This document shows, in pieces, positions 7,410-55,811 of a stretch of 57,753 bases of DNA (positions are counted from its first letter, which is position 1; every line of letters starts with the position of its first letter). The position numbers and the translations under genes are program-made. The DNA comes from Candidatus Methylomirabilota bacterium (GTDB lineage Bacteria > Methylomirabilota > Methylomirabilia > Rokubacteriales > CSP1-6), in assembly GCA_046723845.1 (NCBI GenBank), contig JBKOVG010000028.1:1-57753 (forward strand), written 5' to 3'. The notes beneath the pieces were generated by a model, which was given only the letters and a program-made list of their open reading frames with translations, did not search any database and had not been told where the DNA came from.

Positions 7410-7511
7410 GTCCACACTGTACGAGCGGTTTCACAGAACGCCAAGAAATGCAGTTGGGTGCAGTGCATCACATACCTCCCGCACATGCGGTGAGCATAGG
7501 AGGAAGGTGGA

Positions 7512-7688: not shown

Positions 7689-7771
7689 GCCGTCGCAGTC
7701 AGAGAACACACACCTCGTGCGCCCCGGGGGCTGGCCAGCCAGCCTCCGGGGTTACGGAGACACAACGAGCA

Positions 7772-8239: not shown

Positions 8240-8255
8240 GAAGGTAGGGACAAAC

Positions 8256-9140: not shown

Positions 9141-9625
9141 AGCGCACAGGAGGTTGGTCAATGCGTCTACCGATCCTTTTCAACCACTCCGGAGTTCTCG
9201 TCGTGCTGGCGGCAGCGGCCGCCCTCGTGGCGGGACCGGCCGCCGCCCAGACCCCGACGCCTGTCTACGTCGCGGTGGACGGGTCCATGCTCCTGACCTT
9301 GACCGAGCCCGCCCGCAAGGTCGCGGTGGCGAACCCCGCCATCGCGGACGTCCAGGTGATCAGCCCGGCGCAGCTCCTGGTCGTGGGCAAGTCCTCGGGT
9401 GTGACCTCGCTGATGATCTTCTCCGGAAAGGCGCTCCAGTCCTACAACCTCATCGTCCATCCCTCTTCCATCGCCGCGGCGAGCACCAGTACCACGCTGC
9501 CGCCCCCGCACGCGGTCCTCGTCCAGCGGGGAGACAAGATGGCCGAGCACCTCTTCACGCGCGGACCCGATCAGCGCTGGCTCGAGCTGGGTCAGGTCAA
9601 GCCGGAAACGGACGCCAAGAAGTGA
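9137..9625 (+). CDS. Exported stand-alone secretin N-terminal-domain protein
   Basis: Signal peptide (AAA|Q). VAVANPAIADVQVISPAQLLVVGKSSGVTSL is paralogous to the N-domain of the next gene. Confidence 0.8.
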   Translation: MKRTGGWSMRLPILFNHSGVLVVLAAAAALVAGPAAAQTPTPVYVAVDGSMLLTLTEPARKVAVANPAIADVQVISPAQLLVVGKSSGVTSLMIFSGKALQSYNLIVHPSSIAAASTSTTLPPPHAVLVQRGDKMAEHLFTRGPDQRWLELGQVKPETDAKK

Positions 9626-11037: not shown

Positions 11038-11050
11038 GCCGGAGCGGCGA

Positions 11051-12268: not shown

Positions 12269-13641
<1,373 letters not shown>

Positions 13642-13645
<4 letters not shown>

Positions 13646-14583
13646 TGGTCCTCGTCGCCTCCCTTCTGGTCTTCCTGTTCTTCGTGGTCCTGGTCGTCGG
13701 GATCTGGTGGATCTCCAAGGCCGACCGGGCGGTGCGCGACCGCCTGCGGCAGGCCGGGCCGCGCGCCTCCAGCGTTGAGATCCTCCGCCCCGAGCGGGAT
13801 GCGAAGCGGGGAATGGCAGGAGTTTTCGGTGATGCCGGTCTTTCGCGGCGCTTGGCGCGCCTCGCCATGGAGGCCGGCTACAAGTCGACCGCGAGCGATC
13901 TCATGCTCGTGACGGTCGCCTGCGCGGCAGTCGGCGGGGCTGCCGCCTGGCTGCGGACCGGCGGGCTGTTCTGGGGCGTTGCCACTGCGGTGGGAACGGG
14001 CAGCCTCCCCGCCGTGTATCTGCTCTACAAGCGCGCGCGGCGCATCACCCGCTTCCAAACACAGTTCCCGGACACGCTCGACATGATCACCCGGGCCATC
14101 CGGGCCGGCAACGCGCTGAGCGGCGCGATCAACCTGGTCGGGCAGGAGATGCCGGATCCCATGGGTCAGGAGTTCAGGCAGGTGGACGACGAGATCCGGC
14201 TCGGGACGGAACCCGGGGAAGCGCTCGCCGGCCTCGAGACCCGGATGCCCACCGAGGACGTCCGCTTCTTCTGCACCGCTATCCGGATCCAGCGCAGCGC
14301 AGGCGGCAACCTGGCCGAGATCCTCGAGCGGCTGGCCGAAGTCATCCGGGAGCGCTTCAAGATCCTGAGCTATGCGCGGGTTCTCTCGTCGCAGCACAAA
14401 TGGTCGGCGGTCTGCGTGGGATTGAGCCCGGCCATCTTCGGAATCATGTTCCAACTCTTGCATCCGGGATACTTCGACGCCATGCTGAAAGATCCCATCG
14501 GTCCCTACCTGATCGCGATTGGCCTCGTTTTCGAGGTGATCGGCTTCTTCGTGATCTGGCGCATCGCCCAGATCAAGGTCTGA
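13642..14583 (+). CDS. tadB: TadB platform protein
   Basis: [19 protein letters not shown]...[16 protein letters not shown] (T2SSF domain). Confidence 0.93.
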
Positions 14584-14587
14584 TGCC

Positions 14588-15535
14588 GTGAGCACCTTGA
14601 CGGTGGCCATCCTCTCCTTCGTGATCGTGGCGGGTGTCACCCTGCTCGCCGGTATGATCTTGATGCGCTTCTGGCCCGCACTGCAGCGCGAGCGCTTCGA
14701 TCAGGCGGGCGCCGCGACCGCGGGGGGTCCCACCTCCGTCCTCCGGTGGAACGAGGAGCCCGGATCCGGCTGGGAGCGCACCATCGAGAAGATCGGGCGC
14801 GCCGTCGGCGGTTCGGAGGAGAGCGCGCCGAGCAAGTATCGCAGGCGTCTGATCTGGGCGGGCTACCACGAGCCGCGGGCCGTCCTGCTCTTCCTTGGCG
14901 CCAAGGTCGCCCTCGGGGCCGGTCTCGGCTCGTTCTACTTCCTGTACAGTCTCGCAGCCCTCAACGCGGTGCCGTTTCCCCGGATGCTGGCGGTCTCCCT
15001 GATCCTGGGCGTGATCGGTTTCTTCCTTCCGGACTACTGGCTCTACAACCGCATCAAGGTGCGCCGGCGGGAAATCATCCACGCCCTACCGGACGTGCTC
15101 GATCTCCTGATGGTCTGCGTGGAGGCAGGCCTGGGCTTTGACGCCGCGGTGGCCCGGGTCGCCGAGCAACCCACGAAGCGGAACAGCCCGCTCCACAGGG
15201 AGCTGCTCCGCATGCACCTGGAGGTGCGCGCGGGCCGGCCGCGGCAGGAAGCCTTGCGGGTCCTGGCCGAGCGGTCAGGGGTCGAGGAGCTGCGGTCGAT
15301 CGTGGGCGCGTTCATCCAGACGGAGAAGCTCGGCACCCCGTTGGGGAAGACGCTGCGCGTCCATGCCGATGCTGCCCGGGTCCAGCGTCGACACCGGGCG
15401 GAGGAGCAGGCCCACCTGGCGCCTCTGAAGATGCTGTTCCCGACCGTGTTCTTCCTGATGCCCGCGTTCTTCCTCGTCACCCTGGCCCCTTCATTGCTGG
15501 GCCTGATGAAGCTACTCAAAGCGATCAGCCATTGA
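14588..15535 (+). CDS. tadC: TadC platform protein
   Basis: LPDVLDLLMVCVEAGLGFDAA...QTEKLGTPL...KMLFP. Confidence 0.93.
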   Translation: MSTLTVAILSFVIVAGVTLLAGMILMRFWPALQRERFDQAGAATAGGPTSVLRWNEEPGSGWERTIEKIGRAVGGSEESAPSKYRRRLIWAGYHEPRAVLLFLGAKVALGAGLGSFYFLYSLAALNAVPFPRMLAVSLILGVIGFFLPDYWLYNRIKVRRREIIHALPDVLDLLMVCVEAGLGFDAAVARVAEQPTKRNSPLHRELLRMHLEVRAGRPRQEALRVLAERSGVEELRSIVGAFIQTEKLGTPLGKTLRVHADAARVQRRHRAEEQAHLAPLKMLFPTVFFLMPAFFLVTLAPSLLGLMKLLKAISH

Positions 15536-16170
15536 CCACGGAGGCAAGTCGAATGACGCGAATGACAGCCCTCTCGTTGCTCCTCGCCGCCACCCTCGCC
15601 GGCTCGGCGGGTAGCGCGGCCGCCCAGGACGTCACGGCCGCAGTGCGTACCTGGAGCGGACAGTCATGGCAGGTCAGCCAACCCTCGCTCGAGGTCTTCT
15701 ACACCATCGTATCGAAGACCCAGGAGAGCGCTGGGGGTGGCGGAGCCGGAACCTCGGTCGGGCAGTTCGGCAGCATGGCGACGCTCGGACTCGGCGGGCT
15801 TGGCCCCCAGTACGTCGACCCATCTCTCTTCACCCTCAACCGCCTCTTCGGGCGCCAGGCCCCAGACACCATCCAGGGCCACCGGCAGGCCCAGGAGATC
15901 ACGGTCTACCGGGGCGGCGTGGCCATCCAGATCGCCGTCTCCAGCATCGCGAGTTTCGCCTTCGCGCGCGAGCCGGTCCAGGACAGTTCGCTGCCCCCGT
16001 ACATCGCGCCTAAGCATGTCAGGTCGGCCGCAACCGTGCTCCTGACCGACGGAACCCGGGTGGACGCCGACTACGTGAACCTGGGCGGCATGCTCCTGCG
16101 GGGCGCGATACCGGGCGGGCGCGTCGACATTCCCTGGCAGGACATCGAGACACTCGAATTCCGCCGCTGA
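15532..16170 (+). CDS. Exported hypothetical protein in tad operon
   Basis: Signal peptide (AAA|QD), beta-rich, ends VDIPWQDIETLEF; overlaps the tadC stop. Confidence 0.7.
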   Translation: MTTEASRMTRMTALSLLLAATLAGSAGSAAAQDVTAAVRTWSGQSWQVSQPSLEVFYTIVSKTQESAGGGGAGTSVGQFGSMATLGLGGLGPQYVDPSLFTLNRLFGRQAPDTIQGHRQAQEITVYRGGVAIQIAVSSIASFAFAREPVQDSSLPPYIAPKHVRSAATVLLTDGTRVDADYVNLGGMLLRGAIPGGRVDIPWQDIETLEFRR

Positions 16171-16192
16171 CGACCGGTATGGGAGGCGCGCG

Positions 16193-17410
16193 ATGAGACT
16201 AAGTTGGCTCCGCGACCAGCGCGGCAGCATTCTGCTCTTCACCACCGTTCTGGTCGTCCCGCTGATGCTCATCATCAGCGGTCTGGCCCTCGATCTTTCG
16301 TACTACGGCACGGTGGACGACCAACTCCAACGGTCGATGGATGCCGCGGCCCTCGCGGGCGCCGGCAAGCTCGGGTTCGACGACTCCGTCTTCCCGACCG
16401 TGCGGTCGTTCGCCCAGACCTACGCGTCCATCAACCACTTCAAATCGGGCACGATCAGTCTCGACCTGAACACCGCCAACAACCCGAGCGGCAACATCGT
16501 GCTCGGGATCTGGAACGCCGGCACGTTCACCCCCTCGCTGGACGGCAGCAGGGTGAACGCCGTCCGCTGCCAGTACTCCACGACCGTACCCACGTCGTTC
16601 CTGAGGCTGATCGGCATCAACAGCCTCGTCACGGCCGCCGGCGCGGTGGCGATCGCCAATCCGCCGGTCACACCGGGGTGCGGCACGCCGATCCTTCCGA
16701 TCGCTGTTGTGCCCTGCTCCTTTCAGGATGCTGGTGGAGGCTTTAACAATAGCAACGGGTGTGGAGCCGCTCTCACGTGGATCTCCTCGGCAAAGTGTAC
16801 GTCCCAGAGTGGCTCACAGTTTTGCAACACTGCGGCCTGGGCAAGTTTGGATGGAAGCACTCCAAATGCGACGTACATTGAAAATGCAATTAACAACACC
16901 AAGAGCGAAAATCCGACCTGTAACGCGACGAAAGGAAGCGGCCAGACCACCCCGGTCAACAATGGGATGATCACGGGCAAGGCGTTCGAGACGCTCAAGG
17001 CAGCGTACGTGGCAGAGCGGACGTCGACACTTCCTAGTGGTGACGTGCTGGGGCCCGACGGTAGCGGCGGCATGAAAGTTATCTACACAGCCTCGAAGGG
17101 GGGGTGGGAGACCGGCGTGATGCTGATCAAGCCGAATTCCTGCCCGCCAGGGCCTATCACCGGCGAACAGTCAGTGGTGACCTATAGCAAGTTTGTCGTG
17201 ACCCAAGTCTATGACGGCAACGACAAGAAGGGTGGATACTGCATGACCATGCCGAATCCCGACCCGCAGGCCGATCCTTACTGCACGAATCCCAAGGCGG
17301 GCGAAACTGGGGTCTTCGGGTACTTCCGGTGCGACCAGCTCGGCCATGTGGCCACGCTGGATCCGGTGCCGCGGGCGGCTCTGGCCACGAGATTGAGACT
17401 CGTCCGGTGA
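16193..17410 (+). CDS. tadG: TadG-like Cys-rich minor pilin / putative tip adhesin
   Basis: DQRG|SILLF...LALDLSY...QLQRSMDAAALAGA Tad motif; many Cys; ends ..RLVR. Confidence 0.88.
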   Translation: MRLSWLRDQRGSILLFTTVLVVPLMLIISGLALDLSYYGTVDDQLQRSMDAAALAGAGKLGFDDSVFPTVRSFAQTYASINHFKSGTISLDLNTANNPSGNIVLGIWNAGTFTPSLDGSRVNAVRCQYSTTVPTSFLRLIGINSLVTAAGAVAIANPPVTPGCGTPILPIAVVPCSFQDAGGGFNNSNGCGAALTWISSAKCTSQSGSQFCNTAAWASLDGSTPNATYIENAINNTKSENPTCNATKGSGQTTPVNNGMITGKAFETLKAAYVAERTSTLPSGDVLGPDGSGGMKVIYTASKGGWETGVMLIKPNSCPPGPITGEQSVVTYSKFVVTQVYDGNDKKGGYCMTMPNPDPQADPYCTNPKAGETGVFGYFRCDQLGHVATLDPVPRAALATRLRLVR

Positions 17411-18201
17411 GCCATCGACGTCTCGGCTGGCTGCTGCTCCCGGTGTTGCTCGGGAGTGGCGGCTGCGTCACCGGCGGCCTCGCCGCGATGGGTCCGATCA
17501 TGGGCCCGCTCGCGGCCATCGGTGATCGGACGGTCGAGCGCACGATCCCCGCAGATCTGTCCACGACGTGGGGGGCAACGATCGACGCTCTGGCCCGGAT
17601 GGCGGTGCGCGTGGAGCAAACAGAGAAGTCGGGTGACCAGTGGCACCTGACCGGAACCTACGAAGCCATCACGGTGCACGGGACTCTCGAGCGCGTCACC
17701 GCCAGCATGACCAGAGTCTCGATACGGGTTGAGGCCGGGCGGCTCTACGCCGACAAGCGGACCGCCGACGAGCTGCTGAACCAGGTCGGCGCGTCGCTTG
17801 CGAATCTCACCAATCCCGGCTCTCGGGAAGCCAAAGCCGACGCCTCCGCGGGGCGCCTCGAGGCCTTGCGGCAGGCCATCGAGCGGCTGGAGGGGAAGGT
17901 CGACAAAGGCCAGGACGGGCGCGAGCTGGCGCAGCCTGGACGCCGTGATGATGGCCCAGCATCGCCGCCAGCTATCGTGACCAGCCCCATCATCACGGTG
18001 CCGGCCTCGGCGGGGGTGGCCACCATTCCTGGGCCGCTTCCAACCCTGGTGCAGGCGCCGGCCCCCCGACGTGACGAGCAGCACGTGGGCGTCAAGGAGG
18101 AGCGCCAGGATTCGATCCGCGACATCATGGCCAACCCTCTTCGCTCCGTCGACGTCCTGAGACCCGTAGAGGGCCTGACGATCCGGCCGGCCAGCCAGTA
18201 G
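17407..18201 (+). CDS. Lipoprotein, DUF3568-like N-domain + coiled coil + Pro-rich tail
   Basis: GTG 17407 overlaps the tadG stop; LLLPVLLGSGGC lipobox-like; TRVSIRV..G. Confidence 0.7.
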   Translation: MSHRRLGWLLLPVLLGSGGCVTGGLAAMGPIMGPLAAIGDRTVERTIPADLSTTWGATIDALARMAVRVEQTEKSGDQWHLTGTYEAITVHGTLERVTASMTRVSIRVEAGRLYADKRTADELLNQVGASLANLTNPGSREAKADASAGRLEALRQAIERLEGKVDKGQDGRELAQPGRRDDGPASPPAIVTSPIITVPASAGVATIPGPLPTLVQAPAPRRDEQHVGVKEERQDSIRDIMANPLRSVDVLRPVEGLTIRPASQ

Positions 18202-32273: not shown

Positions 32274-34181
32274 TCATGCTGGGGACTCCGGAGTCAGGAG
32301 CCACTCCCACCGGACCCCCTTCTTGACGCTGTCGCAGACGCGCTCGCGGGCCCGTCGGAGGGTGATCTTCGTGAACCCCGCCGCCGCGGCGTCCTTCATG
32401 ACGTCTTCGGAGTGGCGGGGGCCGGCGACCAGGTATTCGCGGAGCCAGGCCTCGCATTGGCGTCGGCTGCCGCGGTCCTCCGGGGATTCTTGGGGCGGGG
32501 TGAAGATGTCCGTGAGGTTGACCGTGACGGGTTGGGCTTCCCACGTGATCCACGGGACGGCGGCGTCGTCAGCGGCCACGATACGGTAGGCGAGGGTCGG
32601 GACGCGACCGTAGAGGTTGCCCTTGAGCTTGACCAGAAAGCGCCGCGGGTTCGCGCTGTCATCGTCGGGATCCTGCGCGACACCGAGGACGACGCGTGGC
32701 ACGGCCGTGAAGGCCACGGAGCCGCCGGCGTAGTAGTGCAGGTTCGTGGTGACCTTGGGCGGATGCATGAGGCCGATGCCGGCGGCGCCCGTGCGGGCCA
32801 GGAGCGTTGCGAAGGGAGTGAGGACGCGGCGGACGTCGGCGTCGTTGTGTGATTTCACGTTCCCGAGATAGCCGATGATGCCGTCGACAACCACGAGGGC
32901 GGGATGCTCCGTCTCGATGGCATGCTCGAGGGCGTCAATGTCCCGCTCCAGCGTCAAGAGCGAGAGCGCCCCATCGGCGTCACGAACCATCTGCACGAAG
33001 CTGATCTTGGTGAGGTCGGCGCCCGCCTGGCTCAGGCGGGGCACGATGGTGCTGGCGAGCGTGTCCTCGTTCGTGAGCATCAGCGAGCGCCGAGACGCCC
33101 CACGGCCGGCGACCGCGGCCGCGGGGGGCAGCGGCGAGCCCACGGACAACCGGGCCATGTAGTCGCATGCGACGAGCGTCTTGCCTTGGTCGGGGAGCCC
33201 GACACCCATCGTGAGCGCGCCGACGGCCAGCCGGCCCGGGTCCACCCAGGTGATCGGTTTGGGCGTCACGCTGCTCGCGGGCACGAGGATGGCCGCCCGC
33301 CCGCCGGGCCGCAGGGGCACGCCAGGCTTTGCCCGCTCGCCGGGCGGCTTCCGCGCATCCTTCGCGGCCAGGTCGCGGACGATCTCCCGCACTTCGCCCT
33401 CGGGGAAGGGGGGAACGCAACGGGCCGCGTACCCCAGGAGGATAGCCTCGACCTCCGTGGTCACAATATGGAGGCCGAGATAATGGCCCGCGATTTCCAG
33501 CGCCACCGCGCGGCGCCGCCCCTCGGGAGCTCCGCGGAGCCGCTCGGCCCACGCATCGGGCGTGGCCCGCGGCCCAGTTCCATTGCTCAAGCTCGACGAC
33601 GTGGCCAGCGCGAGGTCGACCAGCCAGCTCGGCATCGGGGCCAGATCGGTCTCGAAGAGCGGGCGATCGGGGTCGTCGTGATAGACGCCTCCGCTGACAT
33701 GCCCGGAGGGCGGGACCAGGACGTAGCCTCCCTGTGCCCGAATGTCGAGCCCGGCCCCGACGACGCCGCTGCTACACCGGAGGTGGGGCACCGGCTGGAA
33801 GTAGTGGTGAGCACCGCCACCGCCCGTCCACACTTGGGGCGTCACCGGTAGCGCACCGTGGTGGCGCTCGAGCGCCGCGAGGGCACCGTTGCCTCCGTGG
33901 CGCGGGTCCACATCCAGCACGGCGCACCAGGTCGTGGGCGTCGCAATATGGGCGTGTGGATGGCGCCGCCACCACGCTGTGATCCGCGCGATCTCCGTCG
34001 CCGCGTCCTTGAGCCCGTTCGGCGCGACGTCGCCCAGAGGGTGCTTGCCTGAGTCTTTGCAGTTGGGGCCGCGGCCACACGCACAGTGACGATCCGCGAT
34101 CCACCAGCACGGGAAGATAGGCACGTCCCGCTCGGCATAGGCGAGCGCCGCGTCCAGCATCGTCCTCGCAATGGTCTTCAT
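32274..34181 (-). CDS. Bifunctional DNA primase/polymerase fused to AAA_25-type helicase
   Basis: AALAYA, C.C...C...GKHP, VLDVDPRHGG, TGGGGAHHYF, DIRAQGGYVLVPPS (Prim-Pol); P-loop GLPDQGKT, LVVVD, H..K, GS.AF. Confidence 0.9.
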   Translation of the reverse strand: MKTIARTMLDAALAYAERDVPIFPCWWIADRHCACGRGPNCKDSGKHPLGDVAPNGLKDAATEIARITAWWRRHPHAHIATPTTWCAVLDVDPRHGGNGALAALERHHGALPVTPQVWTGGGGAHHYFQPVPHLRCSSGVVGAGLDIRAQGGYVLVPPSGHVSGGVYHDDPDRPLFETDLAPMPSWLVDLALATSSSLSNGTGPRATPDAWAERLRGAPEGRRRAVALEIAGHYLGLHIVTTEVEAILLGYAARCVPPFPEGEVREIVRDLAAKDARKPPGERAKPGVPLRPGGRAAILVPASSVTPKPITWVDPGRLAVGALTMGVGLPDQGKTLVACDYMARLSVGSPLPPAAAVAGRGASRRSLMLTNEDTLASTIVPRLSQAGADLTKISFVQMVRDADGALSLLTLERDIDALEHAIETEHPALVVVDGIIGYLGNVKSHNDADVRRVLTPFATLLARTGAAGIGLMHPPKVTTNLHYYAGGSVAFTAVPRVVLGVAQDPDDDSANPRRFLVKLKGNLYGRVPTLAYRIVAADDAAVPWITWEAQPVTVNLTDIFTPPQESPEDRGSRRQCEAWLREYLVAGPRHSEDVMKDAAAAGFTKITLRRARERVCDSVKKGVRWEWLLTPESPA

Positions 34182-34624
34182 GCGTCGGGCGTGTCAAATC
34201 GCATGCACAGCTCCAACGCCGCCACTTCGACGACCGCCGCGGCGGACAGAATCTCCCAACCCAGGAAGTCTCCCTCGCCTAACCCCGTCGCGAACGCTCG
34301 CGCGATGGTCGCGGTGCGAAACGCTCGCCGGATGGCGACGGCCGCCCTCGAGCGCAAGCCGTCGGCGGTCATCGCCGTCCCTCACTCGCTGGGGACGCTA
34401 TTCGCTGCTGTCGGCCTCTGGGCACGTCCCACGCGACCGGCACCCAATGCGGCGAGCGGGCGCGGGATCTCGTGCACGAATCGCGCGTGCGAGGGCTCTT
34501 GGCTCGTGTGCCGGTCAGCGGAGTAGCGGGGGGCTCGTTGACCCCCGAGGCGGCGGCGATGCTCAAGGCGAGGACGAAGCCGAAGAGCCCGAGACGTTCA
34601 CCCCGAACAAAACGGAGACGCTAA

Positions 34625-35770
34625 GTGGGTAGCCTCTACCGAAAAAGGCGAAAGCAGCGCGACGGCACCACGGTCGAGGAGCAGATTTGGTGGGTGAAGT
34701 ACTACAAGGATGGCCGGCCGGTCCGCGAATCGACGGGCACGACGAAGGAGAAGGAAGCCGCCAACTTTCTCAAGCGACGAGAGGGCGACGTCGCGAAGGG
34801 CCACCCGATTCTCCCGCGGGCCGAGAAGGTGCGGTGGGAGGAAGCGGCGGCCGATCTGCGCCAGCACTACGAGGCGACGGGCGCTCGGGATCTCGTCGAG
34901 TATGATCGCCGGGTCGCGCACCTCACGCGGGTGTTCGCCGGCCGGCGCATCGCCGGGATCGATCAGGTCGGCGTCAACACCTACACCCTGAAGCGGCGCG
35001 AGGATGGCGTCGTGGACTCCACGATCCGCCGGGAGCTGGGGACGCTGATCACGCTGCTCCGGCGCGCCTATCGGAACGGAAAACTGCTCCAGCTTCCGCT
35101 GTTCGATCGGCCGAAGGGCGGGAAGCCGCGGGAAGGCTTCTTTGAGCGGGCGCCGTTCGATGCCGTGCGGCGCAAGCTCACCAACGAGGATCTCCGGGTC
35201 GCGGTCACGGTCGCCTATACGTTCGGCTGGCGGATGCAGAGCGAAGTGCTCACGCTCGAGCGCCGCCAGCTGGACCTTGACGCGGGAACGCTGCGCCTCG
35301 GTGCCGATACGAAGACCGACGACGGTCGGGTGATCTACCTGACGCCAGAGTGCGCGCGGCTCCTGGCCGCCCAGGTCGCGCGCGTCGAGGCCCTCCAGCG
35401 GCGGCTCGGTCGCGTGATCCCGTTCCTGTTCCCGCACCACGGGAAGGGCCCGCGGGCAGGGACGCGGCGGAAGGACTTTCGGAAGGCGTGGACGACGGCG
35501 TGCACGGCGGCCGGCGTGCCGAGGATGATCCGCCACGACTTCCGGCGGACGGCCGTCCGCAATATGGTCAACGCCGGGGTGCCGGAGCGGGTGGCCATGA
35601 CGATCACCGGCCACAAGACGCGCTACATCTTCGACGCCTACCACATCGTCAGCCCCGGCGACCTGCAGGACGCGGCGCGGAAGCTGGCGGGCACCATTCC
35701 GGGCACCATCGCTGTTTCAGTGATTGACGCCGGGCCGCAAGTACGCGAGACTCCACGCACGGGCGGATAG
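34625..35770 (+). CDS. int: Tyrosine recombinase / phage-type integrase
   Basis: N-terminal arm-binding-like WWVKYY..GRPVRESTGT; catalytic GWR..E, TK, HDFRR, GHK, Y; abuts the tRNA. Confidence 0.95.
   Translation: MGSLYRKRRKQRDGTTVEEQIWWVKYYKDGRPVRESTGTTKEKEAANFLKRREGDVAKGHPILPRAEKVRWEEAAADLRQHYEATGARDLVEYDRRVAHLTRVFAGRRIAGIDQVGVNTYTLKRREDGVVDSTIRRELGTLITLLRRAYRNGKLLQLPLFDRPKGGKPREGFFERAPFDAVRRKLTNEDLRVAVTVAYTFGWRMQSEVLTLERRQLDLDAGTLRLGADTKTDDGRVIYLTPECARLLAAQVARVEALQRRLGRVIPFLFPHHGKGPRAGTRRKDFRKAWTTACTAAGVPRMIRHDFRRTAVRNMVNAGVPERVAMTITGHKTRYIFDAYHIVSPGDLQDAARKLAGTIPGTIAVSVIDAGPQVRETPRTGG
35689..35708 (+). repeat. Putative integrase arm-type binding sites (right, inside int)
   Basis: GGGCACCA-ttcc-GGGCACCA, 19/20 identical to 631-650. 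Confidence 0.7.
35724..35752 (+). promoter_or_regulatory. Element-supplied sigma70-like promoter for tRNA-Val, inside int
   Basis: TTGACG-17 bp-GAGACT ending 8 nt before the tRNA, the same geometry as 449-477. Confidence 0.55.
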
Positions 35771-36107: not shown

Positions 36108-36208
36108 GATCAACCTGCGCTGAGCTTGCATAGCGTCTCATTTGTAAACGGGATCGTCGGAAGCGGTGTGCTCACCTCGAGGGCGGCGCACGCATGAGGA
36201 GGTTCACA

Positions 36209-36811
36209 ATGAGGCTCATCGCCCAGGTCGCTCTGTCGGCGGCGGCTCTGTCTCTGTCGGCCTCGGCTACCTACGCTACGCCACTCGAGTTCGTCGCGGT
36301 TCTCAGTCCTTCAAATGAGATTCCTCCCGCCACCGGCTCGTCAGGCACCGGTCTCGCGAAAATCTTTCTCGATCCAGCCGCCCACACGATCCAGATCAAC
36401 GTGACGTTCAGCGGCTTGACTACGCCGGATATGGCCGCGCACATTCATTGCTGCTTGCCCTCTCCGTTCTTTCCCATGAACGTCGGAGTCGCCACCACGG
36501 TCCCTGCGTTCCCTGGATTCCCTCTCGGAGTGACTTCAGGGACTTACAGCTCTGCGCTGCTCAGTCTGACCGACCCGGGGACCTACAATCCAATGTTCGT
36601 CAGCGCACAGGGTGGGATCGGGAACGCGGAAGCAGCGCTGGTGGCGGGAATCGAGAACAGAGAAACGTATCTGAACATCCACACGGCGATGTTTGGCGGT
36701 GGGGAGATTCGCGGATTCCTTGTGGCACCTGAGCCTGGCACTCTCCTCCTCCTCGGCGCGGGCCTTGTTGCTTTGGCGGGGATCGGATGGAGACGCCACC
36801 GCCGTAAATAG
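36209..36811 (+). CDS. CHRD-domain PEP-CTERM protein
   Basis: Signal peptide, AAHIH, YLNIHT..F.GGEIRG (CHRD); C-terminal APEPGTLLLLGAGL...RRHRRK. Confidence 0.92.
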   Translation: MRLIAQVALSAAALSLSASATYATPLEFVAVLSPSNEIPPATGSSGTGLAKIFLDPAAHTIQINVTFSGLTTPDMAAHIHCCLPSPFFPMNVGVATTVPAFPGFPLGVTSGTYSSALLSLTDPGTYNPMFVSAQGGIGNAEAALVAGIENRETYLNIHTAMFGGGEIRGFLVAPEPGTLLLLGAGLVALAGIGWRRHRRK

Positions 36812-41081: not shown

Positions 41082-41744
41082 CTAGGGGTGGTCGGTCTGC
41101 ACGACCCGATTGCCGCCCGAACGCACCGCCTCCTGGAGCCGGGCGCGGGCGCGCGAGAGAAGCGAGATCTCGCTGTGCCCGTCGCTGGGGAAGGAAACCT
41201 CGCCTACGCTGAGCGTGATGGGGCGCCCGGGTCCGGCCGGCTCGCCGGGGAATCGCACGTTGGCGATCTCCGCGCGGAGACGCTCGGTCACCCGCAACGC
41301 GTCACTCGTTCCCGTCTGCAGCAGGAGCACGCCGATGCCATCGCCGAGGCGTCCTACCACGTCCGACGAGCGCACGAACTCCACGATCTTGCTGGCCACT
41401 CTCTGTCCCATCTCGGCTGTCTGGTCCTTCGGGCCGATCTGGTCGGGCTGGAGCACGCAGAGCACGAAGAAGTCCCGATAGCGGGTGGCCCGGTTGGCCT
41501 CGAGCGAGAGAAGGCGCCGGAAGGTTTCCTCGTCCAGGACCTCTCCCGGCATGATTCCCCGCTTGGGCTCGGGCGGCTGGGCGCTCACGACCCGCTCTCC
41601 AGGCTTGGGCGAGGGCGCCAGGGCGCCGGCGGGGCGACGCCGACCGGAACGTCGCGTCCCACCGTTCGGGTCCGCCAACACCATGAAGGGATCGCTATCG
41701 GGACGTGCAGAGGGCATGGTCTCACCTCGTTCCCCGGCCGGCAA
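41082..41744 (-). CDS. Degenerate GGDEF-domain protein
   Basis: E..RA.RY...F, VRSSDVVGRLGDGIGVLL, ERLR, TLSVG..SFP.DG, GGNRV; no GG(D/E)EF. Confidence 0.8.
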   Translation of the reverse strand: MPAGERGETMPSARPDSDPFMVLADPNGGTRRSGRRRPAGALAPSPKPGERVVSAQPPEPKRGIMPGEVLDEETFRRLLSLEANRATRYRDFFVLCVLQPDQIGPKDQTAEMGQRVASKIVEFVRSSDVVGRLGDGIGVLLLQTGTSDALRVTERLRAEIANVRFPGEPAGPGRPITLSVGEVSFPSDGHSEISLLSRARARLQEAVRSGGNRVVQTDHP

Positions 41745-45582: not shown

Positions 45583-46350
45583 CTACTTCGTGGGCCGGCG
45601 GGTCCTCCAGCCGAGCCCCGAGAGAGCCACGACTCCCGCCCCGAGCAGAAGGAGACTCGACGGCTCGGGGACGTGCCGATTGGGCAGGCAGCTCAGAATG
45701 CACGTTCCGGTGACGTTGTCACCTTCTTCGGTCCCGAAGGAAAAGAAAGCGGAGTCGACGTAGATGTCCGACGAGAGACCCGCGATCTGAATGGTAAACG
45801 TCGTGGGTCCAAAGAGGTACGGACTGTGCGAACCGTTGGTGATCGAGGGGTTGCCCGTGTAGTGGAACCCGTCATTCGACGGGCCGCCGATGATAGTGTG
45901 CGCCGGCGAATCGCCGCCCGGGCAGAGATCACAAAGCCTGTAGCTCCCCTTGCCACTGTTGATCTCGAGATTCCATAGGGCCAGAACGGGGGCACCAGGA
46001 ATATTGAAGGTGCCATCGCTGGCGATGGTCCGTTCAATCCCCTGGCTCGAGGAGATCGACCCTCCACTGACGAAAAACGGCTGGCCCGTCGTGTTGTTCG
46101 CCAGCGTGAACCCGAAATCGCTCAAGAGCTGGCCAGCCGCGTGGGGATTGTCGAGGAGATTGGTCAGGGTGATCGTCAGCACGCCCGCGGTTGTCGATAC
46201 GTCAGCCCTCGCTGAAACTGGGTCCCCATCTTTGTCTGTGGCCCCGGAAGGGGTTTGGTAGGAGAGGATCAGCGCATCGGCGGCGGGAGCGAAGAGCAAG
46301 AGGACCGACAACGCCAGCAGCGCGATTCGCGCATCTCGCCACATTCTCAT
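45583..46350 (-). CDS. PEP-CTERM sorting-domain protein
   Basis: Signal peptide (ADA|L); C-terminal VPEPSSLLLLGAGVVALSGLGWRTRR. Confidence 0.92.
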   Translation of the reverse strand: MRMWRDARIALLALSVLLLFAPAADALILSYQTPSGATDKDGDPVSARADVSTTAGVLTITLTNLLDNPHAAGQLLSDFGFTLANNTTGQPFFVSGGSISSSQGIERTIASDGTFNIPGAPVLALWNLEINSGKGSYRLCDLCPGGDSPAHTIIGGPSNDGFHYTGNPSITNGSHSPYLFGPTTFTIQIAGLSSDIYVDSAFFSFGTEEGDNVTGTCILSCLPNRHVPEPSSLLLLGAGVVALSGLGWRTRRPTK

Positions 46351-49569: not shown

Positions 49570-49920
49570 GATCTCCGGTTGTCCGCGTCGCTTCGCGCCC
49601 CTCCCGTACTTTCTGGCGGGCATGCGCGGCGAAACCAGTAGGCCATACGGTCCGCTCCATGGTCAAACAATCCGCGTCTCGCAGAACCGTCGCACTCAAT
49701 CGCATGGTGAGTCCAGAGTGGCCGCGTCGACGACCTCGGATCTGCCGTCCGATCCTCTCGCCGATAGCGAACTCGGTCGTGAGACAAGCAGTTAAGCGGG
49801 AGAGGAAACATTTTCCTTTTCTGTCGGAAGCCATACGCAATTCAAAAGGGCGCAGAAATAGCATGCTGAACGCAACTCGACGCGATCAAAGGCGGAAGCA
49901 TCCGTGTCGCAGGGCAGATG

Positions 49921-50066
49921 TGTTTTACAGCGTGTGAAATTTCCACGAACATAGATTCTCAGAGCCCTTCCTCTTCGGAAAACCTTACAGTTCGCGGGCG
50001 CCGAGCTCTGTGATGCGACCGAAACTGCGGAGAAAAAAGCAATCCGCGGGCTGGCCTAAGCTTTGC
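49921..50066 (+). promoter_or_regulatory. sigma54 promoter with upstream (T/C)TTACA boxes for the Gly-rich gene
   Basis: TGGCCTAAGCTTTGC (50052-50066); TTTTACAG near 49923 and CCTTACAG near 49983. Confidence 0.6.
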
Positions 50067-50338
50067 TCATGGTGCGCCGTGCGTGGCGACTGAAGGGTTC
50101 TATGCCTTCACGAACCGCTTTCCCATGACGAAGACGGGATCTACCTGGATTCGTTGCGCAACGCCGGCCGCGGAAGTCGATCCGTGCGTCGTGCGCGGGC
50201 GCGCGCCGCCCTAGGTCCTGGCCCGTGAACTGGGAATGAGGTTCGGCGTCCCTGCTCACCGACTGCCCCCAGCGGTTCCAGCGTGAGCGCGTCGACACAG
50301 CGAAACCCCAACCGACCAAACCATAGAGGACGAATCGA

Positions 50339-53128
50339 ATGAAAAGATGGATGGCACTGTTCACTATCGCGATGTGGGTCGCCGGCGTTGCGACCCCGCC
50401 GATGGTGGACGCAGCGGGGGGTTGCAGTCCTAGCATCGCGAACTCGTCGAACCGGACGGTGAGCGGGACGAGTGGGAACATCACCGTCGCCGCGGCGGCG
50501 AGTCTTGCGGCGCCCACCAACGCCACCCAGACGACTGGGAACGGCGGTAACGCAGCCGCGAGCACGATCGGGAACACGGGCGCTGCCCAGGGTGGTAACG
50601 GTGGTTCTGCCACCGGCGCCGCGGGGGGCGCGGGCGCAGTCGGAGCCGCGGGCGCGGTCGGCGGAGCTGGTGGCGCCGGCGGAGCGAGCGGAACCGGCGG
50701 TGCTGGTGGCGTGGGCGGTACGGGTGGTGCGGCTACCAACACCCAGTCCGGTACGTTCGGTGCTGCCACGGGCGGCGGGTCTGCAGCGCAGGGTGGCAAC
50801 AGCGGTGCCGCGACGAGCGGTGCCACGACGGGTGGTGCCACGAGTAGCGGTACCCAGGTTGGGAACGCCGCCGGCGGCGCTGGTTCGTCGGCGGGCGGAG
50901 CTAGTGGGGCTGGCACCGGGGGCGGCTCTGGCGCGACCGGTGGTCTGAGCGGCGGTGTGACCGGCGGCAACGGTGGAAACGCCACGGGCGGTCAGGGTGG
51001 CGTCGCCACTGGCGGCCAGAGCGGCACGGTCGACACGGGCAACGGCGGTAACGGCGGTGCGGGGACCACCGGTGCAGCCTCCGGCGGGTCTGGGGCGCAA
51101 GGTACCGGCGGTAACGGCGGCAACGCCAACGGTGGCTTCACTGTCACCGCGGCCGTCCCCGTGAGCATTGGCAACGGCGGTAATAGCGGCGCCACTGGCA
51201 ACAACACTGGTGGCGGAGCCACCGGTGGCAACAGCGGCGCGGCCAACGGTGGCACTTCTGGCGCAACGTCTCAGACGAGCACCAGCACCGGAACCGGCGG
51301 TGACGGTACGGGCGGCAGTGGCGGTAACTCCGGGAGCGCCGATGGCGGGACCGGTGGTAACGCCAACGGTGGTTCGACCGGTGCCTCGAACGGTGGTTCC
51401 AGCGGGTCTGCGTCCGGGTCTGGTGGGTCCGGCGGCAGCTCGGGTACCAGCGCTGGCGGCTCCGGGGTCGGTGGGTCAGGTGCTACGGGGACCAACACGA
51501 CGGGCAACTCGGCTGGTGGCAACACGAACTCTGGCAGCGGTACGGGCGGTGACGGGACTGGCGGCAACACCACCTCTAACGGCGGCGCTGGTGGTACTGC
51601 CTCTGGCGGAGCGGGCGCTTCTACTATTGGTAATGTCCCCACCGGCAATTCCGGTAACTCCGCCAACGCAAGTGGTAACGGTGGCGCCGGCGGCAATGCT
51701 GGGGCGGGGAGCGGCGGCAACGCAGGCGCTGGTGGCGCTGGTAATGGCGCTGCCGGCACCGCGACTGGCGGGGCTGGTGGTAACTCGACCGGTGGTACGG
51801 GCGCTGCCAACGGCGGCTCGGGTGCCGCTGCAAACGGTGGTGCGGGTGGCTCGGTCGCCGGTGGTAACGGTGGCACAGGCTCTGCCAACGGCGCCGCCGG
51901 TGGTACGGGCTCGAGCGGCGGTGCTGGTGGTGGGAACGCCGGCTCGGCCGGTGCCGGTACGAGCGGTTCCGGTACCGGTGGCGCTGGCAACGGCGCTTCT
52001 GGTGCAGGCAACGCGGCGGGTAACGCCGGTAGCGGTGCAGCTAGTGCCGGGAACAGCGGCGCTGGCGGAAACGCCACGGGTGCCGCAGGTACGGGTGGTG
52101 CCTCGACGGGTGGCACCGGGCCCGGTGGCACCGCGAACAGCGGGGCTGGCGGTGCTGGCGGTGCTGCCAATGCCGGTGCTGGTGCGACCGGTACGGGTGG
52201 CGCAGGTGCGGCCGCTACGAGCGGTGCTGCCAATGGTGGCGCCGGAGCGGCCGGAGGTGCTGGTAACAGCGGTGCCGGCGGTAACGCGACCGGTGGCGCC
52301 GGAGCAGCAGGTACGGGCGGTGCCGGTGGTGGTGGTACGACCGGTGCCGGTGGTAACGCCAACTCTGCCGGCGGTGCCGGTACGAGCGGGCTGGGCGGTA
52401 ACAGCACTGGTACAGGCGGCAACGCTACCACGGGCGCGCAGTCGGTCGCCGGTGGCGCCACCACGGGTGGCGGTGCGACCAGTGGCGCTGGCGGTAACTC
52501 CACGTCTCAGGGCGGAAATGCTTCTGGGACGACCGGCGCAACGACCAACACGGCCGGCAACGGTGCGGTTGGTGGGCAGGGTGGTAATTCCGGTACGGGT
52601 GGTGCTGGTGCCGTCGGCGGTAACGGTGGTGCCGGTGGTGCCGGCGGTTCCGGCGGTGCCTCGACCACCGGTAGCGGTGGCGCGGGTGCGCCCAACAACT
52701 CCAGCATCAACTCCGGTGCAGCGGCTGCGGCGCCGGGTGGAGCTGGCGGCAGCAACGCGCAGACCACGACGTCCGGGCCTGCGGAGAACCACGGTAACGC
52801 GACCGGGACCAGCTCGGCCAACTCCGGCGATCAGGCGACCGGTATCACCGCGAACGGGCAGTGCGCCGATGGCGGTATCAACATCGGCGGCCAGAATCTC
52901 GGTGTGGCGAACATCGGGAACGGCAACAAGAGCCTTATCAACAACGGTGACGTTCTCGGCGTGCTGATTCAGAAGCTCGGCGGCAGCAAGCCCGCCGGCG
53001 GCTCGTCGAAGGAGATCACGACCACCATCAACAACCAAGGCAACGTTGGTAACGCTGCCGGGCAGGCGGCGGTGGGGAAGAGTTCGAAGCCGAACCAGAA
53101 CAACAACCAGACGTTCATCTCGCAGTAG
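50339..53128 (+). CDS. Secreted 929-aa Gly/Ala/Thr/Ser/Asn-rich repeat protein
   Basis: Sec signal peptide (VDA|A), ~800 aa of GGxGGxG-type repeats, N/Q-rich C-terminus; GAGG RBS. Confidence 0.85.
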   Translation: MKRWMALFTIAMWVAGVATPPMVDAAGGCSPSIANSSNRTVSGTSGNITVAAAASLAAPTNATQTTGNGGNAAASTIGNTGAAQGGNGGSATGAAGGAGAVGAAGAVGGAGGAGGASGTGGAGGVGGTGGAATNTQSGTFGAATGGGSAAQGGNSGAATSGATTGGATSSGTQVGNAAGGAGSSAGGASGAGTGGGSGATGGLSGGVTGGNGGNATGGQGGVATGGQSGTVDTGNGGNGGAGTTGAASGGSGAQGTGGNGGNANGGFTVTAAVPVSIGNGGNSGATGNNTGGGATGGNSGAANGGTSGATSQTSTSTGTGGDGTGGSGGNSGSADGGTGGNANGGSTGASNGGSSGSASGSGGSGGSSGTSAGGSGVGGSGATGTNTTGNSAGGNTNSGSGTGGDGTGGNTTSNGGAGGTASGGAGASTIGNVPTGNSGNSANASGNGGAGGNAGAGSGGNAGAGGAGNGAAGTATGGAGGNSTGGTGAANGGSGAAANGGAGGSVAGGNGGTGSANGAAGGTGSSGGAGGGNAGSAGAGTSGSGTGGAGNGASGAGNAAGNAGSGAASAGNSGAGGNATGAAGTGGASTGGTGPGGTANSGAGGAGGAANAGAGATGTGGAGAAATSGAANGGAGAAGGAGNSGAGGNATGGAGAAGTGGAGGGGTTGAGGNANSAGGAGTSGLGGNSTGTGGNATTGAQSVAGGATTGGGATSGAGGNSTSQGGNASGTTGATTNTAGNGAVGGQGGNSGTGGAGAVGGNGGAGGAGGSGGASTTGSGGAGAPNNSSINSGAAAAAPGGAGGSNAQTTTSGPAENHGNATGTSSANSGDQATGITANGQCADGGINIGGQNLGVANIGNGNKSLINNGDVLGVLIQKLGGSKPAGGSSKEITTTINNQGNVGNAAGQAAVGKSSKPNQNNNQTFISQ

Positions 53129-53149
53129 CCGTAGTGGAGTAGTGTCCAA

Positions 53150-53187
53150 GATCCTGGCGGTGAGCCGCGAGGCTCACCGCCAGGGTC
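53150..53187 (+). other. Strong intergenic hairpin without a U tract
   Basis: GATCCTGGCGGTGAGCC-GCGA-GGCTCACCGCCAGGGTC: 17-bp stem with one G-U pair and a GNRA loop. Confidence 0.8.
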
Positions 53188-53227
53188 ACCACTCCGTGGC
53201 ACTCGCCACTTCGGAGACCCGGAACAC

Positions 53228-54811
53228 ATGAAGCGTGTGCTGTCAGCGATGACCTTGGCGACCATGCTGCTCGTGGTGCGTCCGGTGGCTGCCGACAGTC
53301 CTACCACCGTCCTCAACGCCGTCCAGAACCAGGGCAACACGAGCGGCCAGGCGGCGATCGGGACCTCGGGCAATACCAACCAGAACAACAACCAGAACTC
53401 GCTGGGTACCTCGAGTGCGACTTCCGTCAACATCGGTGGCATCAGCATCACCCCGGGAACGGCGGGTGGCGGCGTCTCCGGCCTCAATGCCGCTGAGTCA
53501 GGGACGGGCACGGGTGAGGGGTACGTCGGCTATTCCGGCTCGACCACCTTCGCCTCTCCCTCGATCACCTTCGGCAGCAGCAACGTGAAGAACATCAACG
53601 TCAATCTGCCCGGTCTCCCCGGCATCCTCGGCGCCCCCGGTAACTTCTCTCAGCCCTACAAGCCTGACGTATTCATCAACGGAGCAGGACCGGTGCGGCC
53701 GGCGCGCATGACGTACGAGCAGGCGGAGGAGTGCCGCGGCGGCTATGGCTACAAGGACACCTACGTCGGCGCCTCTCGTGAGAGAACCAAGGAAATCCAG
53801 CTCGTCTACGCGGCGTGGGACAAGATCGACGTCTCCAACGACATCTCGAACTACGTCGGGATCTCCTCGGTCGAGGGATCGGACAAGCCCTGGCTCCCCG
53901 CAGTCTGCGAGGCGGCGTATCACGCGATGGACAAGGGCGCCAACTACGGCGTCGTGGAGTTCATCATCCGCCCGAAGAACACCATGAAGGGCTTCGGCTT
54001 CGGCAGCTCGGGCGGCGGTTCCGTGGTGCCGAACGTGGCCACCGCGACGTCTCCGTACGGACTGGCTGCTTCCCTCGGCTTCGGCATGGGCTGGTCGTCC
54101 CAGAGGGTCGAGGGTGAAGTGATGATCCAGCTCACCGGGTTGCGCGTGCCGACGCAGACAGCGGCGGTCAAGCCTCCCGTTCCCGCGCCGACGGCCCCGC
54201 AGGTTCCCGCAGCGCCCGCGGCTCCCGCGCCGCCGGCTCCGGCTGCAGCGGCTCCGCCCGCGCCGACGCCTCCGCCCGCGCCGCAGGCGACGATCACTCC
54301 CGCGCCCACGGCGCCCGTGATTCCGCCGCGGCCGGCTGACGACGGTCGAGTGATCAAGCCGGACGGGCAGACGCTGAAGCTCCAGCCGGAGGCGCGGCCG
54401 CAGAGTGGCCCGGATCAGGCCGACCCGCAGCCGCTGAGCGTGCCGGGCCAGCCGCAGAGCGCCCAGCCGACCTCCGTGCCCGATCCGTCGCAGAGCGTGG
54501 CCCCCTCGCCGCTCAACGTGCCCGGGCAGCCCGGAGCGTCCGCCCCGCCAGATTCCGCTCCGATCCCGAACCCGACGCCGCTGAACGTCCCGGGTCAGCC
54601 CTCGGCAACCGCCCCGGCCCCGAGCCAGGCACCAGCGCCCACGCCGGCTCCAACCCCCGCTCCGCTGACGGTGCCCGGCCAGCCGGCGGCTTTCGCGCCG
54701 CAAACGCAGCAAAGCGGCGCCGCGGCCATCCCCGCGAGCTTTTCGGGCACGACGGCGACACAGCAGGCTTCGGGTATTCAGGGCAAGCTGAACGGCGCTG
54801 GAGGCCGTTGA
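53228..54811 (+). CDS. Secreted protein: N/Q-rich N-terminus, globular core, Pro-rich tail
   Basis: Signal peptide (VAA|D), host-like codon use, four PLxVPGQP repeats. Confidence 0.85.
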   Translation: MKRVLSAMTLATMLLVVRPVAADSPTTVLNAVQNQGNTSGQAAIGTSGNTNQNNNQNSLGTSSATSVNIGGISITPGTAGGGVSGLNAAESGTGTGEGYVGYSGSTTFASPSITFGSSNVKNINVNLPGLPGILGAPGNFSQPYKPDVFINGAGPVRPARMTYEQAEECRGGYGYKDTYVGASRERTKEIQLVYAAWDKIDVSNDISNYVGISSVEGSDKPWLPAVCEAAYHAMDKGANYGVVEFIIRPKNTMKGFGFGSSGGGSVVPNVATATSPYGLAASLGFGMGWSSQRVEGEVMIQLTGLRVPTQTAAVKPPVPAPTAPQVPAAPAAPAPPAPAAAAPPAPTPPPAPQATITPAPTAPVIPPRPADDGRVIKPDGQTLKLQPEARPQSGPDQADPQPLSVPGQPQSAQPTSVPDPSQSVAPSPLNVPGQPGASAPPDSAPIPNPTPLNVPGQPSATAPAPSQAPAPTPAPTPAPLTVPGQPAAFAPQTQQSGAAAIPASFSGTTATQQASGIQGKLNGAGGR

Positions 54812-54821
54812 TCGAGGCGAG

Positions 54822-55811
54822 CTAGTTCAGTACCCGATCGGCCTGGGAGAGCACCGGCTCTGGAATGGCCAGCTGGAGGCTCTTGGCGACCCGCCCATCC
54901 ACGATCACCTCGAACTTGACCGGTGCTCCGGTCGCGAGCACTGAAGGAGGTGTTCCCTTCAGGAGCTCGGCCACGAAATCCGCAGCGCGACGCCCGAGGC
55001 TGGCCCAATCGTAGTCGACAGCGATCACCACCCCGTCGGCGAGGTAGGAGCCGACGGAGGGTATGCCCCGAGCGGTGGCGAAGCCCACGATGTGGCGTCG
55101 CCAGTCGGGACGGGGCAGGAATCGAGGGCCGACGAGGAGCACGTCAGGGACCTCGCGAGTGATGGCCGCGGCGAGATTTGCGAGGTCGGGCTCGCTGCTC
55201 ACGTCGAGGACGCTGATCGCGACTCCCGCGGAGGCGGCGGCCGCCTCGAGTCCCTTGACGTACTCGGCGAGGTACGGCCGGTCCGAGCTGGTGAGGACGG
55301 CGAAGCGTGCGGCGGACGGGACGAGCGCGCGTGCCAGTCTGAAGTGGGCGGCGCTGATCTCGCGCGCGGAGGCGGCCTCCGACAGGCGCGCCACCGGATA
55401 GGTCCGGCACGGACCGTACGGCTCCGCCACGGCGATGGCGAGGATGGGGACACACTGCGCCGGCTCGATGCGCGTGTCGGCGGCGATCATCGAGGAGGTC
55501 ACGATCACGTCGGGATTGGCGCGGAGGAGATCGGCCAAAAGCCTGGGCAGGCGATCTTCGTAGCCGCTCGACCATCGGCGCTCGATGGTGAGGTTGCGGC
55601 CCTCCACGTAGCCCAGCTCGCGGAGACGACGCTGAAAGACGTCCCAGACCTGCGTCGGGTCGGCGCCCAGGGTCGCCACGCGGTAGGGAGCCGAGGGCTG
55701 CGCCGTGACCCGGACCGACGTGACGAGGAGCGAGACGATGCAGAGGACGGCGGGTATCGATCGGCGCGCGGCGAGCCGTCGCGGCGAGGACGGCTCAGGG
55801 GGAGCGGCCAT
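54822..55811 (-). CDS. ABC transporter substrate-binding protein (ABC_sub_bind type, divergent)
   Basis: LRELGYVEGRNLTIE.R, RRAADFVAELLKG, KFEV, L.IPE.VLSQADRV. Confidence 0.85.
   Translation of the reverse strand: MAAPPEPSSPRRLAARRSIPAVLCIVSLLVTSVRVTAQPSAPYRVATLGADPTQVWDVFQRRLRELGYVEGRNLTIERRWSSGYEDRLPRLLADLLRANPDVIVTSSMIAADTRIEPAQCVPILAIAVAEPYGPCRTYPVARLSEAASAREISAAHFRLARALVPSAARFAVLTSSDRPYLAEYVKGLEAAAASAGVAISVLDVSSEPDLANLAAAITREVPDVLLVGPRFLPRPDWRRHIVGFATARGIPSVGSYLADGVVIAVDYDWASLGRRAADFVAELLKGTPPSVLATGAPVKFEVIVDGRVAKSLQLAIPEPVLSQADRVLN

Follow-up and report, generated by a model that had tools for sequence, protein, structure and literature searches.

A pair of adjacent genes was analysed in a 57,753-nucleotide (nt) stretch of DNA from a Candidatus Methylomirabilota bacterium (contig JBKOVG010000028.1, positions 1 to 57,753; hereafter the window). 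The first gene, P0001 (50339..53128, + strand), encodes a Gly-rich, putatively secreted protein of 929 amino acids (aa), and the second, P0002 (53228..54811, + strand), encodes its putative secreted partner of 527 aa. The gene pair is real, conserved and so far undescribed, and the relation between the C-terminal tail of P0001 and the N-terminal head of P0002 is unusual, specific and co-varying. In the explanation that we favour, with a probability of roughly 0.45, P0001 would be the abundant subunit of a secreted polymer or coat and P0002 its envelope anchor or nucleator, the two being coupled through the shared terminal motif. A fibre or amyloid nature of the pair is plausible. Neither protein belongs to a described family. 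Pfam and NCBIfam models gave no match to P0001 or P0002 at E values up to 1, profile searches of PDB sequences returned nothing meaningful for either, PHROGs matched neither protein nor the phage-borne pair described below, and a viral structure library gave no match at E ≤0.001. No published account of the gene pair was found in literature searches on FvfA and Francisella and on Rokubacteria and amyloid.

The tail motif occupies aa 892-928 of P0001 (EITTTINNQGNVGNAAGQAAVGKSSKPNQNNNQTFIS; 53012..53122, + strand), and the head motif, at the mature N-terminus of P0002, occupies aa 24-60 (SPTTVLNAVQNQGNTSGQAAIGTSGNTNQNNNQNSLG; 53297..53407, + strand). The sequence-only reading, an earlier inspection of this DNA, had claimed a close match between these two termini, and BLASTP, profile and shuffle comparisons confirm it. 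BLASTP with composition adjustment aligned tail and head with 15/36 identities (E 0.041), while P0002 as a query against the 6.3-Mb genome matched the P0001 tail at 47% identity (E 7.5e-4). A profile built from 29 C-termini of P0001-type partners matched only itself and the P0002 head in the same genome (E 1.4e-4). In profile-profile comparison, the tail and head aligned over 37 columns at 49% identity, with 78% probability and E 1.8e-5. The Smith-Waterman score of 93 compares with 37.9 ± 6.5 for 1000 composition-keeping shuffles of the tail (z 8.4) and was reached by 0/1000 of them. The short related motifs noticed earlier are likewise present in both proteins, INIGG at aa 847-851 of P0001 and VNIGG at aa 67-71 of P0002, after the head motif. 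At the DNA level, the two motif-coding segments are ~55% identical outside the codon-forced NQNNNQ stretch. Because they are alike only where codons force likeness, nothing points to a recent gene conversion, and this source of the tail/head likeness is ruled out by the wide difference in DNA.

Searches for relatives of P0002 showed that the pairing extends well beyond the window. A collection of 5.8 billion proteins contains 95 relatives; each is either unnamed or labelled "hypothetical", Pfam domains are absent from all of them, and a few source names point to Rokubacteria, Methylomirabilota, Acidimicrobiales or Gemmatimonadetes metagenome-assembled genomes. Among 1.84 billion cluster representatives, a profile of the conserved P0002 core matched only 47 proteins at E ≤0.001, including 31 at ≤1e-30. 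All family representatives inspected have the same layout of a signal peptide, a low-complexity N/Q/G/S/K-rich head, the motif NF(S/T)QPYKP and the core. Pfam searches with 34 family representatives and nine distant partners yielded no credible family. MBG-domain matches in two giant proteins look spurious and fall on a Gly-rich hairpin, and one Dyp_perox_N match lies exactly at the cut-off and marks no real family.

Eighty loci were collected, 79 from a metagenome scan and one from a genome scan, and 66 of these are close loci, with a core at least 80% identical to that of the window. The tail of the P0001-type partner ends 79-130 nt before the core gene in all close loci whose contig extends 250 nt or more upstream (47/47). 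Overall, it is found in 57/66 close loci; in eight of the nine without it the contig includes no upstream DNA, and in the ninth just 174 nt. On contigs of sufficient length, the frame upstream encodes 800-1000 aa with 30-38% Gly. An adjacent secreted low-complexity protein was also present in 14/14 distant loci examined (five in clade B, five in clade C and four in clade D, the window and its close relatives forming clade A). In clade B (L004-6, L081, L090), the core is ~45% identical and the upstream gene encodes a secreted G/A/N/D-rich protein of 370-430 aa. This partner ends ...LGNAANTSVNLG...NVNPNTNQNTNII, and the core head reads ...LGNAANTAA.GL.GQNVNANLNTNQNT. Clade C loci (L007, L008, L010, L085, L087) have a small N/K-rich secreted neighbour, located downstream in 4/5 and upstream in 1/5. 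In clade D (L079, L080, L082, L084), the upstream secreted protein is Q/G-rich and 100-190 aa long, and the core head is Q/G-rich as well. Clade C core proteins also carry, in place of a Pro-rich end, a globular-looking conserved C-terminal module of ~110 aa (..GQ.K..VF.LFG..F....G.....G.RL........YWFLF...RLLAWG..) with no Pfam match.

Tail and head vary together across these clades. When the tails and heads of 19 loci were scored against each other, the resulting 19 x 19 matrix was block-diagonal over clades A-D. With the window tail, clade A heads score 89-96, clade B heads 36-65, clade C heads 38-48 and clade D heads 21-28, while clade B tails (L005, L006, L090) score 64-85 on clade B heads and 41-56 on clade A heads. 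In 16/19 loci, the same-locus score was reached by at most 5/1000 shuffles. The pattern is also visible within clade A, where heads with LT(V/I)QNAV pair with tails with L(V/T)QNA in five loci and heads with TTV(L/I)NAV pair with TTTINA tails in most of the other 38, two rows being misread or truncated tails. The pairing and the motif put forward in the sequence-only reading are therefore kept and co-vary between clades, as functional coupling would predict and unlike the outcome expected of independent decay.

The terminal position of the motif in both proteins and its co-variation would fit one common receptor equally well. The motif might then be an address tag that a third factor (a chaperone, a secretion or sorting machine, a protease or a modifying enzyme) reads in both proteins, with no binding between them. 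No export component is visible within the cassette itself, and PEP-CTERM substrates encoded nearby imply that the organism has dedicated sorting systems. Known sorting tags, however, sit at the same end in all of their substrates, whereas here the motif is C-terminal in one protein and N-terminal in the other. Furthermore, the tail profile matches only P0001 and P0002 genome-wide, so that a tag would serve just this pair, and no third gene is conserved beside the pair across clades. On balance, a common tag appears unlikely.

The pair is preceded by a sigma54-type −24/−12 motif, TGGC-N7-TTGC (50052..50066, + strand), located 287 nt before the first ATG, in agreement with the single motif of this type reported earlier from the letters. 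The strict motif is found at −221 to −290 from the start of the P0001-type gene in 12/13 sources, window included, and in the source without it, L072, the upstream DNA is just 241 nt long. Counting both strands, the 57.7-kb window contains the strict pattern 8 times, ~0.03 per 400 nt. TGGCAC-type sites lie at a similar distance in two clade B loci. At the clade C locus L085, genes for two sigma54 activators and a histidine kinase lie on the upstream side of the pair, and an OmpA-family gene follows it. A scan for sigma-70 promoters found none, and terminator-like sites were at chance level.

Between the two genes lies a GC-rich stem-loop, read from the sequence (53153..53184, + strand), with a 14-bp stem formed by CCTGGCGGTGAGCC and GGCTCACCGCCAGG around the loop GCGA. 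It is kept in 15/15 aligned loci with a consensus energy of −30.1 kcal/mol, and at 5/15 predicted pairs both bases differ in a compensatory way between clades A and B. No U-tract follows the stem-loop, it was not picked up by the simple terminator scan, and Rfam gave nothing credible in 49600-55000, stem-loop included. We infer that this element would act as a partial terminator or as an mRNA-stabilising end, raising the ratio of subunit to partner. A Shine-Dalgarno-like GGAGA (53213..53217, + strand) is positioned 10 nt before the P0002 start, and a GGAG-type word occurs at the same place in clade A intergenic regions. In one metatranscriptome sample, nine contig pieces matched the pair at ≥88% likeness, eight in the first gene and one in the second (shares of RNA contigs, 0.05-0.06), a weak hint that the pair is expressed.

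P0002 is composed of a signal peptide, the N/Q-rich head, a Gly-rich linker, the conserved core and a Pro-rich tail. The core, defined by alignment (aa 120-311; 53585..54160, + strand), opens with LPGLPG..NFSQPYKP and continues into an alpha/beta domain with two invariant cysteines, Cys169 and Cys227. AlphaFold2, run on a 45-row alignment, was confident for aa 155-250 and 295-305 only. With an exhaustive aligner, the best structural match to the core was FvfA (5evg_A; Z 9.6, root-mean-square deviation 3.1, 89/101 residues, 14% identity), followed by RcsF (2y1b, Z 7.0) and then by small periplasmic proteins at Z 5-6, where Z ~7-8 is common for unrelated small folds. The best Foldseek match was again Francisella FvfA (5evf, E 4.9e-3). 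With scores modestly above background, the model says that the P0002 core is probably a small envelope alpha/beta domain, and nothing more specific.

RcsF is an outer-membrane lipoprotein of E. coli, and FvfA comes from Francisella. Both are small alpha/beta envelope proteins, and the confidently modelled part of the P0002 core (aa ~174-308) can be superposed on them. In contrast, P0002 has no sequence similarity to them and no lipobox, and neither FvfA nor RcsF has its 43-residue Gly-rich insertion, N/Q-rich head or Pro-rich tail. The insertion, read from the alignment (aa 252-294; 53981..54109, + strand), resembles an amphipathic hairpin. In its second strand, Tyr277, Leu279, Ala281, Leu283, Phe285, Met287 and Trp289 alternate with Gly, Ala or Ser, a pattern kept in all clades, and in its weakly hydrophobic first strand Phe256 and Phe258 alternate with Gly. 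Such a hairpin could enter a membrane or join an oligomeric sheet. The Pro-rich C-terminal tail of 216 residues (54161..54808, + strand) contains four PL(S/N/T)VPGQP repeats, its end (KLNG..GGR) is conserved, and its sequence suits the role of an extended spacer.

The hairpin admits a different assignment of roles. P0002 might chiefly be an oligomeric outer-membrane pore that exports P0001, with a ring of alpha/beta domains and a beta-barrel of hairpins, following the logic of CsgG with an unrelated sequence; the head would then be a primer or plug. The strict alternation of aromatic and aliphatic residues with Gly, Ser or Ala in one insert strand, conserved across clades, would fit a barrel, while the first strand, being weakly hydrophobic, fits it poorly. 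The insert is unmodelled in the monomer, as expected if it folds only in the oligomer, and a pore would account for the ability of two genes to function without further partners, even on a phage contig. The L/P-ring entry 7bgl is among the core fold matches (Z 4.4), but CsgG and secretins are not among the structural matches listed, the secretin InvG appearing only at a Foldseek E of 1.5. There is also no CsgG-family sequence match by Pfam, and P0002 is not a lipoprotein. An export pore is, in our assessment, quite unlikely as the chief role of P0002.

Conservation in P0001 is confined to its two ends, a short N-terminal module and a C-terminal module of ~130 aa. A comparison of homologue N-termini placed the signal peptide at aa 1-25 and the N-terminal module at aa 26-60 (together 50339..50518, + strand); the module reads CSPSI...NRTVSG.SG.ITVAAAAS and includes the conserved Cys29. 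The C-terminal module (aa 801-929; 52739..53125, + strand), aligned over 29 sequences, contains in order the invariant Cys842, INIGG, VLGVLIQ, a linker and the tail motif. Both P0001 and P0002 start with MKR, a hydrophobic core and an Ala-rich cleavage-type site (VDA↓A, VAA↓D). Read by inspection, these N-termini are probable Sec signals, as had been proposed. Cys29 and Cys842 are the only two cysteines of P0001. A conserved Cys is found close to both subunit ends in clades A and B, and clade B partners, too, have a Cys directly after the signal peptide. The P0001 cysteine pair could close the chain on itself or join subunits head to tail.

Between the modules lies a Gly-rich body of ~750 aa. 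P0001 consists of 36% Gly, 19% Ala, 12% Thr, 11% Ser and 10% Asn, with nearly no charged residues. A collagen-like or other strict periodicity was ruled out by Gly autocorrelation and repeat analysis. This extreme composition, without regular repeats or a confident fold, would also suit a non-fibrous envelope material, in which P0001 forms a disordered, uncharged brush or gel (which might, for example, provide hydration or protect against desiccation in soil) that is held by P0002, and in which the tail/head likeness is largely inherited from a duplication. All sources are soil-type metagenomes by record names, a weak indication in the same direction. A purely inherited likeness, however, should fade in each gene separately, yet the observed likeness follows the clades, with no sign of gene conversion at the DNA level. 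A brush of this kind is a decidedly improbable account of the pair.

Twelve full-length P0001 homologues each consist of one open frame of 802-999 aa running from signal peptide through tail. That these copies keep the signal peptide, the N-terminal module and the tail in frame speaks for the long open reading frame (ORF) being real. In the 5.8-billion-protein collection, no protein of 510-1626 aa matched the C-terminal 130 aa of P0001, and all 49 database proteins that match its C-terminal module are only 55-481 aa long. The full-length Gly-rich ORF seems to have been missed by public gene calls. Contigs of an RNA library map within P0001. Long artefactual ORFs are open on the strand opposite P0001. 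That the 929-aa ORF itself is no real gene, an open frame arising from GC-rich repetitive DNA, is hardly credible: long open frames do also exist here on the opposite strand and in other reading frames, and the want of any whole-length protein matching the C-terminus indicates that gene callers rarely call it whole, but twelve divergent loci preserve both ends in a single frame, the C-terminal module is conserved at the protein level, with short database proteins matching it, and the RNA contigs fall inside the gene.

Taken as a subunit and its anchor or nucleator, the pair would operate as a self-contained cassette of promoter, first gene, stem-loop and second gene. The sigma54-type promoter would drive both genes, and the stem-loop would probably make the mRNA of the first gene exceed that of the second. 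The product of the first gene, nearly uncharged, rich in Gly, Ala, Thr, Ser and Asn and ~900 aa long, would be exported by Sec and serve as the bulk subunit from which an extracellular polymer or a surface coat is built. The second product, also exported by Sec, would be bound to the envelope and act as anchor or nucleator for the first. Coupling might take either of two forms. The tail and head strands may pair directly, as in a nucleator, or the head may fill a subunit site normally taken by the tail of another subunit, as in donor-strand mimicry. The pairing of the genes, the likeness and co-variation of the motifs and the conservation of the regulatory elements are observed; we infer export, binding, polymerisation, stoichiometry and location of the pair. 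An envelope setting is suggested by the signal peptides seen by inspection, by the FvfA/RcsF-like core and by the secretin gene found within the window as part of a Tad/Flp pilus cluster; because the window encodes this secretin, the cell has an outer membrane. The autonomy of the cassette is suggested by its patchy distribution and by one member on a viral contig. An undescribed subunit with a nucleator or anchor was also what the sequence-only reading had proposed. Its pairing and conserved motif, and the lack of a described family, stand; the roles assigned to the two proteins are the best reading of their sequences.

Several observations weigh against the subunit and anchor proposed here. 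No dedicated outer-membrane export component was recognised beside the pair in a Pfam scan of the 38 window ORFs. The Gly-rich body lacks a regular repeat, with a Gly autocorrelation of at most 0.16 (lag 3), and DNA repeats within it are only short and degenerate; a defined fibre fold of P0001 is therefore not evident, and the protein may be disordered. AlphaFold2 was unconfident for the C-terminal 130 aa of P0001 (mean predicted local distance difference test score, pLDDT, 41.5), and the head, linker and hairpin of P0002 have pLDDT <50 (aa 11-153 and 252-294). Gene order is reversed in 4/5 clade C loci. The weakest three loci in the shuffle comparison (7, 21 and 42 of 1000) all belong to clade D, where the likeness is barely above composition. 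Co-variation over four clades amounts to few independent events, and kinship inflates such patterns. Finally, the RNA contigs may be DNA carry-over and carry no levels, ends or strand.

The pair is like curli and TasA/TapA in logic only; it is not a member of curli, and probably not of the TasA/TapA type either. As with CsgA and CsgB of curli, a secreted N/Q/G-rich subunit, presumably in excess, would be accompanied by a cell-associated protein with matching sequence that could template or anchor it. Unlike in curli, tail and head here share a single terminal motif instead of stacked repeats, a Gly-rich region of 750 aa makes up the subunit body, and control is apparently via sigma54. The curlin repeat model PF07012 (Curlin_rpt) had 0 matches in the genome, which is 86% complete, with a positive E. 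coli control, and no csgEFG-like genes lie near the pair among the 38 window ORFs scanned with Pfam. The earlier statement that no csg or fap gene is recognisable agrees with the general Pfam scan of the window ORFs, in which no Fap-named family turned up, although no search aimed specifically at Fap was made. A single, marginal CsgG-family match was found in the genome (G000 contig C313, 9545-9757, L094; 22.4 bits against a cut-off of 20.8). It covers profile positions 49-119 within a 378-aa frame and is unlinked to the pair.

TasA/TapA of Bacillus subtilis, chaperone-usher pili, type V pili and Ena spore appendages are donor-strand systems. In the TasA/TapA type, a terminal segment of the accessory or anchor protein imitates the terminal strand of the subunit, as the P0002 head might do, and the conserved Cys close to the two ends of P0001 could cross-link neighbouring subunits in the manner of Ena fibres. 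On the other hand, the searches revealed no relation to these proteins in sequence or fold, AlphaFold2 gave no sign of a globular acceptor domain in P0001, and the host is diderm. The long GGA/GGN/GGT-type runs of P0001 recall those of the mycobacterial PE_PGRS proteins, also secreted or surface-located. This likeness is compositional only; P0001 has no PE domain and no family match, and the hosts belong to different phyla.

In a strict first look, the cassette was present in 7/201 sampled genomes of the phylum. It was found in 7/131 genomes of the family and 0/9 other genomes of the genus, the phylum and family tallies both including the unpublished G100. Metagenomic loci come from soil-type sources by record names. 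One clade D pair lies at 7183-8714 of a 68.7-kb IMG/VR viral contig (L079/L091), with RecA-like, SbcCD-like, dCTP-deaminase and SLT transglycosylase genes as neighbours. A bolder form of the subunit and anchor proposal, which we consider rather unlikely, would make the pair a third independent nucleator-dependent bacterial fibre system after curli and Fap: a portable two-gene cassette whose anchor bears a copy of the terminal strand of the subunit and also inserts itself into the envelope by the Gly-rich hairpin, and that moves between uncultured soil lineages, even on phages.

If the proposed roles are correct, uncultured and abundant soil bacteria (Rokubacteria/Methylomirabilota by source names) would build a surface polymer from parts unrelated to described fibre systems, with just two genes needed. 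Head and tail, which co-vary, would form a compact specificity code that could serve as an orthogonal module for protein docking or display. Since the full-length Gly-rich gene was not found as a whole protein in the searched collection, giant low-complexity secreted proteins may be largely invisible in current catalogues.

Several other surface-protein genes are located in the window. The Tad/Flp pilus cluster appears complete (6926-18198) and encodes TadE-like, RcpC/CpaB, secretin, ParA-like ATPase, T2SSE, two T2SSF and TadG-like proteins. A strict sigma54-type motif at 6630 is positioned directly upstream of this cluster. Two proteins with PEP-CTERM sorting signals are encoded at 36194-36808 and 45586-46350, one of them with a CHRD domain, and a strict TGGC-N7-TTGC at 36093 lies ~100 nt ahead of the first. 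Given the motif sites at the PEP-CTERM gene and at the pair, several surface-protein genes of the window may be sigma54-dependent. A gene for a Prim-Pol/AAA_25 protein adjoins a phage-type integrase gene at 32277-35767, ~15 kb from the pair, and this region is probably an integrated mobile element. A protein with a GGDEF diguanylate-cyclase domain is encoded at 41085-41744, ~9 kb upstream of the pair.

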